Virus record (IMG/VR): IMGVR_UViG_2565956726_000008
DNA length: 64,000 nucleotides
Direction: 5' to 3' (one strand)
Source: a virus
Lineage: Duplodnaviria; Heunggongvirae; Uroviricota; Caudoviricetes
Part shown: positions 21,728-24,958 of the stretch, piece after piece
Layout of the letters: each line of letters starts with the position of its first letter
Position numbering within the stretch: the first letter of the stretch is position 1
The notes under the pieces: model-generated
Seen by the model: the letters and a program-made list of their open reading frames with translations, nothing else
What the model was told of the DNA's origin: nothing
Database searches by the model: none
Position numbers and translations under genes: made by a program

Positions 21728-22102
21728 GTGTACCAAATAGTGACCAAATATCAAAAACTAAAATCAAAAACAACATAACATTATGTTTTATAAATGATTA
21801 TTCGTTACACTAATCATTCCAGACAGGACTGGTGAGTAAGTCCAGGGTATTGAAGTTGTGCGTAATCATTGAGATCCCGTTATTTTTATCAATTTTTGTT
21901 GCTATCCGATCGCAAAAAAGCCACGTCATATGATCAGATAATTCTGATAATGATAGACGCTATTTAACACTTCACACGGTTTGTATATGGAAAAGCATTT
22001 TGCTTTTTGTATTCAATTTAGACAGAATTTTATTAATCATTTCAGGGTAATGGGGTGATGAGATGTTGCGTAACAGGGCCAGAAGGCTAGACTACAAAAT
22101 AA

Positions 22103-23107
<1,005 letters not shown>

Positions 23108-23153
23108 CAAAAGCAATTTTTCCGGCTATCTGTATACAAAAACGCCGCAAAGT

Positions 23154-23167
23154 TTGAGCGAAGTCAA
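23154..23167 (+). promoter_or_regulatory. FNR box TTGAGCGAAGTCAA centred about -42 from FnrS start
   Basis: Matches TTGAT-N4-ATCAA consensus; class II spacing to the sRNA 5' end. Confidence 0.5.
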
Positions 23168-23202
23168 TAAACTCTCTACCCATTCAGGGCAATATCTCTC
23201 TT

Positions 23203-23324
23203 GCAGGTGAATGCAACGTCAAGCGATGGGCGTTGCGCTCCATATTGTCTTACTTCCTTTTTTGAATTACTGCATAGCACAATTGATTCGTACGACGCCG
23301 ACTTTGATGAGTCGGCTTTTTTTT
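23203..23324 (+). ncRNA. fnrS: FnrS small RNA
   Basis: Sequence GCAGGTGAATGCAACGTCAAGCGATGGG...GCCGACTTTGATGAGTCGGCTTTTTTTT matches FnrS as recalled; zntB-dbpA intergenic location; terminal hairpin plus U-run. Confidence 0.75.
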
Positions 23325-23381
23325 GCCTGTTATTTATCAGCGTCTACCCTTTAAGAGTCCACCCAATGACCGGAGGGAAAT

Positions 23382-23555
23382 ATGACGACACTTATTTATT
23401 TGCAAATTCCTGTCCCTGAACCGATTCCTGGCGATCCTGTTCCAGTGCCCGATCCGATCCCTCGCCCGCAACCCATGCCTGACCCACCACCCGATGAAGA
23501 ACCGATTAAATTGTCGCATCGTGAGCGTAGATCTGCGAGGATACGCGCCTGCTAA
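23382..23555 (+). CDS. proline-rich small protein (57 aa), putative
   Basis: ATG with GGAGGG RBS; PxP-repeat sequence; below the ORF-track size cut-off. Confidence 0.3.
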   Translation: MTTLIYLQIPVPEPIPGDPVPVPDPIPRPQPMPDPPPDEEPIKLSHRERRSARIRAC

Positions 23556-23584
23556 CTTTGCGTCGATGACCACGAGAATAGATT

Positions 23585-24958
23585 GTGACCGCTTTTTCTA
23601 CCCTGAATGTTTTGCCTCCCGCCCAACTCACGAACCTTAATGAGTTGGGTTATTTAACCATGACGCCGGTGCAGGCCGCCGCGCTTCCGGCGATCCTTGC
23701 CGGAAAAGATGTTCGCGTGCAGGCGAAAACCGGCAGCGGCAAAACGGCGGCTTTTGGCCTCGGCTTGTTACAGCAAATTGATGCGTCGCTATTTCAAACC
23801 CAGGCTTTAGTGCTGTGTCCTACGCGTGAACTGGCGGATCAGGTGGCAGGTGAATTGCGTCGGCTGGCGCGTTTTCTACCAAATACCAAAATTTTGACGT
23901 TGTGCGGTGGTCAACCGTTCGGTATGCAGCGTGATTCGTTGCAACATGCGCCGCATATTATCGTGGCAACGCCGGGCCGTTTGTTGGATCATCTGCAAAA
24001 AGGCACGGTATCACTGGATGCGTTGAATACGCTGGTGATGGATGAGGCCGACCGCATGCTGGATATGGGATTTAGCGACGCCATTGATGATGTCATCCGT
24101 TTTGCGCCAGCATCTCGACAGACGCTTCTGTTTTCGGCAACCTGGCCGGAAGCCATCGCCGCAATCAGCGGACGAGTGCAACGCGATCCTTTAGCGATTG
24201 AAATTGACTCAACAGATGCTCTGCCACCTATTGAACAACAATTTTATGAGACATCCAGCAAAGGCAAAATTCCGTTGTTGCAACGGTTATTAAGTTTACA
24301 TCAGCCATCCTCTTGCGTGGTGTTTTGCAATACCAAAAAAGATTGCCAGGCTGTCTGCGACGCGCTGAATGAAGTAGGGCAAAGTGCATTGTCGTTACAC
24401 GGCGATCTGGAGCAACGTGATCGCGATCAGACCCTGGTACGTTTTGCTAACGGTAGCGCCCGTGTACTGGTTGCGACTGATGTTGCTGCGCGAGGTCTGG
24501 ATATTAAATCGCTTGAGCTGGTGGTGAACTTTGAGCTGGCGTGGGATCCTGAAGTTCATGTACATCGCATCGGTCGTACAGCGCGTGCAGGAAATAGCGG
24601 TCTGGCGATCAGTTTCTGTGCCCCGGAAGAAGCACAGCGGGCCAATATCATTTCTGACATGTTGCAGATAAAACTTAACTGGCAAACGCCGCCAGTTAAT
24701 AGTTCCATTGTGCCGCTGGAAGCCGAAATGGCAACGTTATGTATCGATGGCGGGAAAAAAGCCAAAATGCGCCCGGGTGATGTATTAGGTGCGCTGACAG
24801 GAGATATCGGGCTTGATGGCGCAGATATTGGCAAAATCGCCGTGCATCCGGCGCATGTCTATGTCGCGGTGCGTCAGGCTGTTGCTCATAAAGCATGGAA
24901 ACAGTTACAGGGCGGGAAGATTAAAGGAAAAACGTGCCGGGTGCGGTTATTAAAATAA
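23585..24958 (+). CDS. dbpA: ATP-dependent RNA helicase DbpA
   Basis: 457 aa; DEAD-box motifs (AKTGSGKT, DEAD, SAT, HRIGRTAR); matches E. coli DbpA. Confidence 0.9.
   Translation: MTAFSTLNVLPPAQLTNLNELGYLTMTPVQAAALPAILAGKDVRVQAKTGSGKTAAFGLGLLQQIDASLFQTQALVLCPTRELADQVAGELRRLARFLPNTKILTLCGGQPFGMQRDSLQHAPHIIVATPGRLLDHLQKGTVSLDALNTLVMDEADRMLDMGFSDAIDDVIRFAPASRQTLLFSATWPEAIAAISGRVQRDPLAIEIDSTDALPPIEQQFYETSSKGKIPLLQRLLSLHQPSSCVVFCNTKKDCQAVCDALNEVGQSALSLHGDLEQRDRDQTLVRFANGSARVLVATDVAARGLDIKSLELVVNFELAWDPEVHVHRIGRTARAGNSGLAISFCAPEEAQRANIISDMLQIKLNWQTPPVNSSIVPLEAEMATLCIDGGKKAKMRPGDVLGALTGDIGLDGADIGKIAVHPAHVYVAVRQAVAHKAWKQLQGGKIKGKTCRVRLLK

Follow-up and report, generated by a model that had tools for sequence, protein, structure and literature searches.

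YnaL, a proline-rich small protein encoded between fnrS and dbpA: a conserved X-Pro core and near-invariant codons at the 3' end of its gene

The ynaL locus and its annotation

The stretch of DNA analysed here (the window) comprises 64,000 nucleotides of the IMG/VR record IMGVR_UViG_2565956726_000008 and contains a short proline-rich open reading frame (ORF) between the small RNA gene fnrS and the helicase gene dbpA. The features of this region, in window coordinates, are:

Ends at 23107: zntB, upstream of fnrS (ORF list)
23203..23320, plus strand: fnrS sRNA gene (Rfam RF01796, 134.8 bits; gathering score 60)
23297..23325, plus strand: fnrS intrinsic terminator, an 8-bp stem with a T-run (terminator scan)
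23344..23350, plus strand: CTACCCT block, 3' of the fnrS terminator and 5' of the ynaL Shine-Dalgarno (SD) sequence, invariant in a 13-genus alignment
23372..23377, plus strand: SD sequence GGAGGG of ynaL, 4 nt 5' of the ATG (read in the sequence)
23382..23555, plus strand: ynaL coding sequence, ATG at 23382 and TAA at 23553-23555, 57 aa (ORF list, sequence, RefSeq, Pfam)
23556..23584, plus strand: 29-nt spacer from the ynaL stop to the GTG of dbpA, holding a weak SD sequence, CGAGA, at 23573-23577
23585..24958, plus strand: dbpA, encoding an ATP-dependent RNA helicase, with a GTG start (ORF list, RefSeq)

The preliminary description of this DNA reported a 57-aa ORF at 23382-23555, preceded by GGAGGG and lying downstream of FnrS, and these statements agree exactly with the sequence, the ORF list and the Rfam match at 23203-23320. 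The translation, also quoted correctly there, is MTTLIYLQIPVPEPIPGDPVPVPDPIPRPQPMPDPPPDEEPIKLSHRERRSARIRAC; proline accounts for 16 of its 57 residues and stands at alternate positions over residues 19-37. The GGAGG(G) motif before the start codon is kept in nearly all genera, with Klebsiella as the exception. RefSeq names the ORF "proline-rich small protein YnaL" (WP_001296046.1, strain WP8-S18-CRE-02), and its counterpart in MG1655 is b4743 (YP_009518775.1; 1409308-1409481), flanked by fnrS (b4699) and dbpA (b1343). The product matches the Pfam family PF23677 (YnaL) with E=2.1e-40 and 136.9 bits against a cut-off of 27, and the match runs from end to end, residues 1-57 corresponding to profile positions 1-57.

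The ORF had also been assigned to the host backbone, and the distribution of the locus bears this out. A 601-nt query (23100-23700) gave one match each in 5393 of 5426 complete E. coli genomes, with ynaL as a single copy between zntB and dbpA, and a search for plasmid copies of the gene found none. The annotation beneath the match reads "ynaL: protein YnaL" or "proline-rich small protein YnaL" in 30 out of 30 evenly spaced rows listed. One match, in E. coli EC190329 (NZ_CP142949.1), is split by an IS200C insertion near ynaL and the dbpA start, and the features beneath it are tnpA, ynaL, "RNA helicase" and dbpA.

The suggestion that this protein had been missed by size cut-offs is outdated, as ynaL was named after its detection by epitope tagging in 2018 and is now present in RefSeq and Pfam. 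VanOrsdel et al. (2018, Proteomics 18:1700064; PMC6001520) gave the same 57-aa sequence at the same position under the name ynaL, saw the protein by immunoblot with a chromosomal SPA tag, and placed the tagged form in a group of small proteins mostly seen at high levels. The gene is noted there as positive in a tetracycline-arrested ribosome-profiling screen as well, and a ynaL-dbpA operon was suggested as possible. Both of the experimental checks proposed for the ORF, ribosome profiling and epitope tagging, had already been reported positive in that study. Our literature search of one searchable library found no mention of ynaL beyond PMC6001520. The ORF at 23382-23555 is an already named and already detected small protein of E. 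coli, YnaL, and the earlier finding is correct and not new. YnaL is one among many validated E. coli small proteins, and the gene in itself carries no discovery value; three handles on it are its fixed partnership with fnrS, an anaerobic sRNA gene, and not with dbpA, the selection on its (X-Pro)10 rod and the frozen 3' stretch of its gene.

Two further ORFs were noted in the vicinity. An antisense ORF of 78 codons (23337-23573, minus strand) overlaps ynaL; the abundance of Gly, Arg and Trp in its product is what codons complementary to CCN would give, and we treat this ORF as a by-product and not as a gene. An ORF of 15 codons at 22063-22110 (plus strand), 13 nt upstream of zntB, is annotated in RefSeq as "protein YnaN" (b4773) and is possibly a leader ORF of zntB, a gene for a zinc transporter of the CorA family.

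Conservation of the X-Pro core and of the last codons

Searching 5.8 billion proteins gave 164 relatives of YnaL, all carrying PF23677, from Escherichia, Salmonella, Citrobacter, Enterobacter, Klebsiella, Raoultella, Kosakonia, Leclercia, Lelliottia, Pseudocitrobacter and others. The family is narrow, since an HMM search of 1.84 billion cluster representatives gave 33 matches only. Two public records, a 336-bp contig of Alkalicoccobacillus porphyridii and the chromosome of Enterobacter hormaechei B17-3, carry a YnaL that is 100% identical to that of E. coli, and these records are likely contaminated or mislabelled. In an alignment of 28 sequences the first ~15 residues vary freely, and from D18 onward the protein is near-fixed as DPVPxPDPIPRPQPMPDPPPDEEPIKLSH..RSARIRAC.

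We fetched 45 genomic loci and made codon alignments on 39 non-redundant loci, drawn from Escherichia, Salmonella, Citrobacter, Enterobacter, Leclercia, Pseudocitrobacter and Klebsiella. The ynaL reading frame is intact in all 39. The pooled pN/pS over codons 18-56 is 0.21 in frame and 2.07 and 2.28 in the two shifted frames; the same analysis gave 0.088 for the first 150 codons of dbpA. Conservation and dN/dS had been named as the means of checking the ORF, and the Pfam family, the retained frame and the purifying selection in frame sustain its description as a conserved small protein. Within the gene we distinguish three segments:

23433..23495, plus strand: (X-Pro)10 core, codons 18-38, DPVPVPDPIPRPQPMPDPPPD; amino acids invariant or nearly so in the 39 loci
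23496..23519, plus strand: block 1, codons 39-46 (EEPIKLSH), GAAGAACCGATTAAATTGTCGCAT; almost identical in the 39 loci
23529..23549, plus strand: block 2, codons 50-56 (RSARIRA), AGATCTGCGAGGATACGCGCC; identical in 37-39 of the 39 loci

Each proline column of the core uses 3-5 synonymous codons while the amino acid stays constant across the 39 loci, and the synonymous heterozygosity of codons 18-38 (0.475) is similar to that of dbpA (0.44). Because the synonymous sites vary as they do in dbpA and the residues are fixed, the core is conserved as peptide and not as RNA or DNA, and the codon alignments indicate that it is under purifying selection at the peptide level. The central proline of the PPP triplet is replaced by serine (PSP) in E. 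albertii (one locus) and in the Citrobacter youngae group (four loci), apparently through two independent CCN-to-TCN changes. This replacement weakens a strict polyproline-stalling model, and the invariant feature of YnaL, as judged from these alignments, is a proline at every second position and not the PPP triplet. In a 70-aa YnaL from Salmonella enterica the PDPRPHPQPM unit is duplicated internally and in frame, a demonstration that the X-Pro repeat is able to expand. We regard it as firmly supported that ynaL is a real and translated small-protein gene, inherited vertically, and that selection acts on the sequence of its peptide; synthesis of the protein has been reported by others.

The AlphaFold2 model obtained with the family alignment contains no helix or strand (no DSSP elements), with a pLDDT of about 90 for residues 21-40 and a pTM of 0.23. 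Such a model is what one would predict for a chain extended as a polyproline-II rod and floppy at both ends. The proline-rich part carries a net acidic charge of about -6 (residues 10-41); the tail is basic. The protein would be laid out as ~15 poorly conserved N-terminal residues, a rigid acidic (X-Pro)10 rod and, in the clade from Escherichia to Klebsiella, the basic tail EEPIKLSH..RSARIRAC.

The two 3' blocks show a pattern of variation different from that of the core. The codons of block 1 (GAA GAA CCG ATT AAA TTG TCG CAT) have a synonymous heterozygosity of 0.061 and those of block 2 (AGA TCT GCG AGG ATA CGC GCC) of 0.007, and for the two blocks together the difference is strong against both the PxP core (Mann-Whitney, p=7e-7) and dbpA (p=2e-9). 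Codons 47-49, between the blocks, are free to vary. Fixed within block 2 are AGA, AGG and ATA, three of the rarest codons in E. coli. The near-frozen state of the last ~18 codons points to a second constraint, acting at the nucleotide level beside the start of dbpA. Part of the apparent protein conservation of the tail sits at the nucleotide level, as the loss of synonymous variation shows, and the tail may be less important as a peptide than its conservation implies.

Several candidate causes of the frozen blocks were considered and rejected. An overlapping ORF in the +1 frame (23494-23640) loses its ATG wherever codon 38 is GAC (10 of the 39 loci) and lacks a conserved end; the +2 frame contains stops. 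DbpA binds hairpin 92 of 23S rRNA, and mimicry of this site in an autoregulatory circuit was examined by local alignment of 23470-23600 with 23S nt 2440-2620 and with the whole 23S rRNA, where the alignment scored below the mean of shuffled controls. The blocks as general regulators of dbpA were rejected as well, being absent upstream of dbpA in Erwinia. A consensus promoter, considered as a further cause of the freeze, was found on neither strand. Two resemblances are speculation: the GCG-AGGAUA-CGC of block 2 could recall a CsrA-type GGA loop, and a stem between block 1 and block 2 (UCGCAUC with GAU..GCGA) could be drawn around the variable codons 47-49, its bases being invariant and covariation uninformative. 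The likeliest classes of answer are an RNA-level element tied to dbpA expression and a selected slow decoding before the stop codon.

Neighbours of ynaL and the junction with dbpA

Of 45 Escherichia-type loci, 44 have fnrS, the gene of an FNR-activated sRNA, upstream of ynaL; the one exception is a decayed Shigella flexneri pseudogene locus. The same order, fnrS and then ynaL, is seen in Phytobacter, Erwinia and Mixta. Only about 56 nt separate the fnrS terminator from the ynaL ATG in the window, and the distance from the terminator end to the likely ynaL start is about 56-71 nt when E. coli, Phytobacter, Erwinia and Mixta are taken together. Across Enterobacteriaceae and Erwiniaceae, the gene orders compared here indicate that the conserved neighbour of ynaL is fnrS upstream and not dbpA downstream. 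At the exceptional locus, in S. flexneri SFBU1023, ynaL is a pseudogene whose frame is interrupted twice, once ahead of the PxP core and once within the tail, and there is no fnrS match at the Rfam threshold, which fits the decay of Shigella genomes.

A strict sigma-70 promoter scan of 23000-23800 gave no match on either strand. The CTACCCT block could be part of a weak promoter, as a -10 element in the arrangement TTGCCT-16 nt-TACCCT, or could act as an anti-SD sequence, with UACCCU opposite the AGGGUA of the ynaL ribosome-binding site. By eye, the spacing of this sub-threshold TTGCCT-16-TACCCT pair is kept in E. coli, Salmonella and Phytobacter, weaker -35/-10-like pairs are seen between fnrS and ynaL in Erwinia and Mixta, and a 9-nt deletion breaks the TTGCCT/TACCCT spacing in one Citrobacter. 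Given the constant place of ynaL, about 60-70 nt downstream of fnrS, its transcript probably arises from a weak promoter overlapping the T-run of the fnrS terminator or from read-through of that terminator.

Gene order on the other side of ynaL differs among genera. In Phytobacter diazotrophicus and Mixta mediterraneensis, ynaL keeps its PxP core and an AGGAG-type SD sequence. Behind it come a hairpin terminator of its own and then ttcA in convergent orientation, and the 2.5 kb fetched downstream contain no dbpA. In Erwinia psidii (three loci) ttcA lies between ynaL and dbpA, and the Erwinia dbpA leader contains neither a proline-rich upstream ORF nor blocks 1 and 2. YnaL of Phytobacter, Erwinia and Mixta ends in DPPP[HY]R (...DPPPHR in Phytobacter and Mixta), with a conserved AGA-stop. 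The basic tail is missing in members from Kosakonia, Phytobacter, Erwinia and Mixta, and follows the core in the clade from Escherichia to Klebsiella. On the evidence of these gene orders, the EEPIKLSH..RSARIRAC tail and its frozen nucleotides go with the derived juxtaposition of ynaL and dbpA.

At loci of the Escherichia type the gap between ynaL and dbpA is 14-33 nt in 42 of 43 cases, with a mode of 27-29, and the start codon of dbpA is GTG every time, after a weak CGAGA. The ynaL stop codon is TGA in 32 and TAA in 11 of these 43 loci, and TAG in none. From the RIRA codons to the dbpA GTG the distance is 33-35 nt, as checked by hand in E. coli, Klebsiella and two Enterobacter, and it holds despite a moved stop, for example in Klebsiella, where point mutations have produced ...RIRACRLSAF. 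This geometry of the junction fits translational coupling. In the minimum free energy (MFE) fold of the E. coli sequence, GUCGCAUCGUG (codons 44-48) pairs with the CACGA...UGUGAC of dbpA (z = -1.9), and this pairing covers the dbpA SD sequence and GUG; the same pairing is not clearly traceable in other genera. The RNAalifold consensus for the 3' end of ynaL and the 5' end of dbpA is -12.6 kcal/mol with 4 covarying pairs. This consensus is weak and shows little covariation. It does not support a conserved RNA switch that would join the 3' end of ynaL to the translation initiation region of dbpA, nor coupling through the melting of structure across genera.

Function of YnaL and comparison with known systems

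We consider it highly probable that ynaL is a genuine translated small-protein gene of Enterobacteriaceae and Erwiniaceae, whose peptide is likely functional and which, from Escherichia to Klebsiella, may also serve as the upstream cistron of dbpA. The functional product, to judge from the pattern of substitutions, is most likely the peptide itself. Because the chain is without a fold or a catalytic site, it should act by partner binding, and YnaL would do so as a short, rigid, acidic rod. Within the clade from Escherichia to Klebsiella, ynaL would be the first gene of a ynaL-dbpA bicistron in which terminating ribosomes aid the poor start of dbpA, and the nucleotide-invariant last third of ynaL would form part of this arrangement. 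That the upstream cistron helps dbpA initiation in this way is a tentative proposal, to which we give close to an even chance and not more.

Three other explanations bear on the same observations. If ynaL were purely a cis-acting leader ORF of dbpA, the nascent chain rich in proline and acidic residues would stall or abort translation, the level of dbpA translation would follow from where the ribosome stands, and the peptide, once released, would do nothing; the route could be EF-P-dependent stalling at DPPPD or an intrinsic ribosome destabilisation (IRD) like that of MgtL and YagN, sensing EF-P or Mg2+. DPPPD, which is present in YnaL, is a strongly stalling context in the EF-P literature, and the conserved part of the protein is its last ~40 residues, roughly the content of the exit tunnel, behind a variable N-terminus. 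The short gap to the weak GTG of dbpA, the suppressed synonymous variation and fixed rare codons of the last 18 codons, and the E. coli fold that hides the dbpA SD sequence and GUG by means of ynaL codons 44-48 all agree with such a leader, as does the D/E-Pro alternation, which resembles the IRD motifs DPDPEPE (yagN) and EPDPTP (mgtL) (PMC11162784). The leader reading is attractive for E. coli. However, Phytobacter and Mixta retain the PxP core in a ynaL that has a terminator of its own and no dbpA beside it, and in Erwinia, where ttcA intervenes, dbpA has no such upstream ORF and no blocks. The central proline of PPP is serine in E. albertii and the C. youngae group, a conserved alternative RNA structure was not found, and the tagged protein was grouped with small proteins mostly seen at high levels (PMC6001520). 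A pure leader-peptide role is disfavoured, and we judge it improbable.

The other two explanations deny the peptide. The region might be an RNA or DNA element, such as a 3' extension of FnrS or the promoter or 5' UTR of dbpA, that is open in one frame by accident; codons 39-46 and 50-56 are indeed invariant at the nucleotide level including third positions, and a conserved non-coding CTACCCT lies upstream. For the PxP core this explanation is refuted, as in codons 18-38 the third positions vary and the residues are fixed, pN/pS is 0.21 against more than 2 out of frame, the start codon and SD sequence are conserved, and the protein has been detected (PMC6001520). It is tenable for the last third of the gene only, as an overlapping element, and as an account of the whole we find it very unlikely. 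A chance ORF in a GC- and CCN-rich intergenic stretch could be imagined, as ORFs of 57 codons are common by chance and the antisense strand itself carries the 78-codon ORF at 23337-23573, but conservation, selection, annotation and published detection refute it and leave it a negligible probability.

A further reading can be formulated for the Escherichia-Klebsiella clade, in which ynaL could secondarily have become a sensor that reports translation capacity to dbpA through its nascent chain. EF-P, Mg2+ and the stability of the ribosome would decide how well the acidic, Pro-rich DPxP...DPPPDEE stretch is passed, and more time would be lost at the invariant rare codons of AGA-UCU-GCG-AGG-AUA. 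Both effects together would set the number of ribosomes that reach a stop codon 14-33 nt before the weak GUG of dbpA, and the lost synonymous variation in codons 39-56 would be the RNA part of the device. DbpA is a helicase that remodels the region of the peptidyl-transferase centre of 23S rRNA during 50S assembly. If true, the sensor would tie the output of DbpA to the way in which existing ribosomes handle difficult peptide-bond chemistry; we regard this reading as a long shot. The 50-nt stretch at the 3' end of ynaL, whose synonymous sites are frozen across genera, stands beside the start of a gene for a ribosome-assembly helicase.

YnaL shares features with four groups of known peptides and proteins. 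Apidaecin, oncocin and Bac7 are short, PxP-rich peptides as YnaL is, and apidaecin IPQPRPP loosely resembles the IPRPQPMP of YnaL. These antimicrobial peptides are cationic, secreted and of animal origin, whereas YnaL has a net acidic proline-rich part and is cytoplasmic, bacterial and without a signal sequence.

SecM (...GIRAGP, of the RAPP/RAGP class) and TnaC are, like YnaL, C-terminally conserved peptides encoded upstream of a weak-start gene, and the YnaL tail ...ARIRAC resembles the IRA of the SecM arrest motif. For a peptide of that kind an invariant arrest motif at a fixed distance from the arrest or stop codon would be expected; in YnaL the stop varies and the tail is absent in distant members. 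The stop after RIRAC is not fixed, with the extensions CRLSAF (Klebsiella), ICLQR, CYR and CL; some Citrobacter and Enterobacter genomes read on as well. No hairpin sequestering the SD sequence is conserved.

MgtL, the 17-aa proline-rich leader peptide of mgtA, and the YagN motif are intrinsic ribosome destabilisation sequences with alternating acidic residues and prolines (EPDPTP, DPDPEPE; PMC11162784). YnaL is like them in its EP/DP repeats, including DPPPDEEP, and in its location, in E. coli, just upstream of another gene. The motif of MgtL is at the extreme N-terminus, whereas that of YnaL begins after ~12-17 residues, and MgtL controls a transcription attenuator, whereas for YnaL we found no attenuator or conserved switch structure. 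A basic tail is present in MgtL as it is in YnaL. A leader ORF of this type would be expected to lie, in every member, within the 5' leader of the gene it regulates, and for ynaL this is true only at Escherichia-type loci; YnaL persists in other genera without an adjacent downstream gene.

The remaining profile matches of YnaL, all far below threshold, are only to the TonB polyproline spacer (PF16031 with 11 bits against a cut-off of 33; NF008084 with 20.8 bits against 315) and to proline-rich surface proteins, and these matches are compositional. YnaL differs from TonB in having no membrane anchor, no TonB C-terminal domain and no other domains. The likeness lies in the (X-Pro)n repeat, which in the TonB spacer, as in YnaL, would be expected to form a rigid polyproline-II rod.
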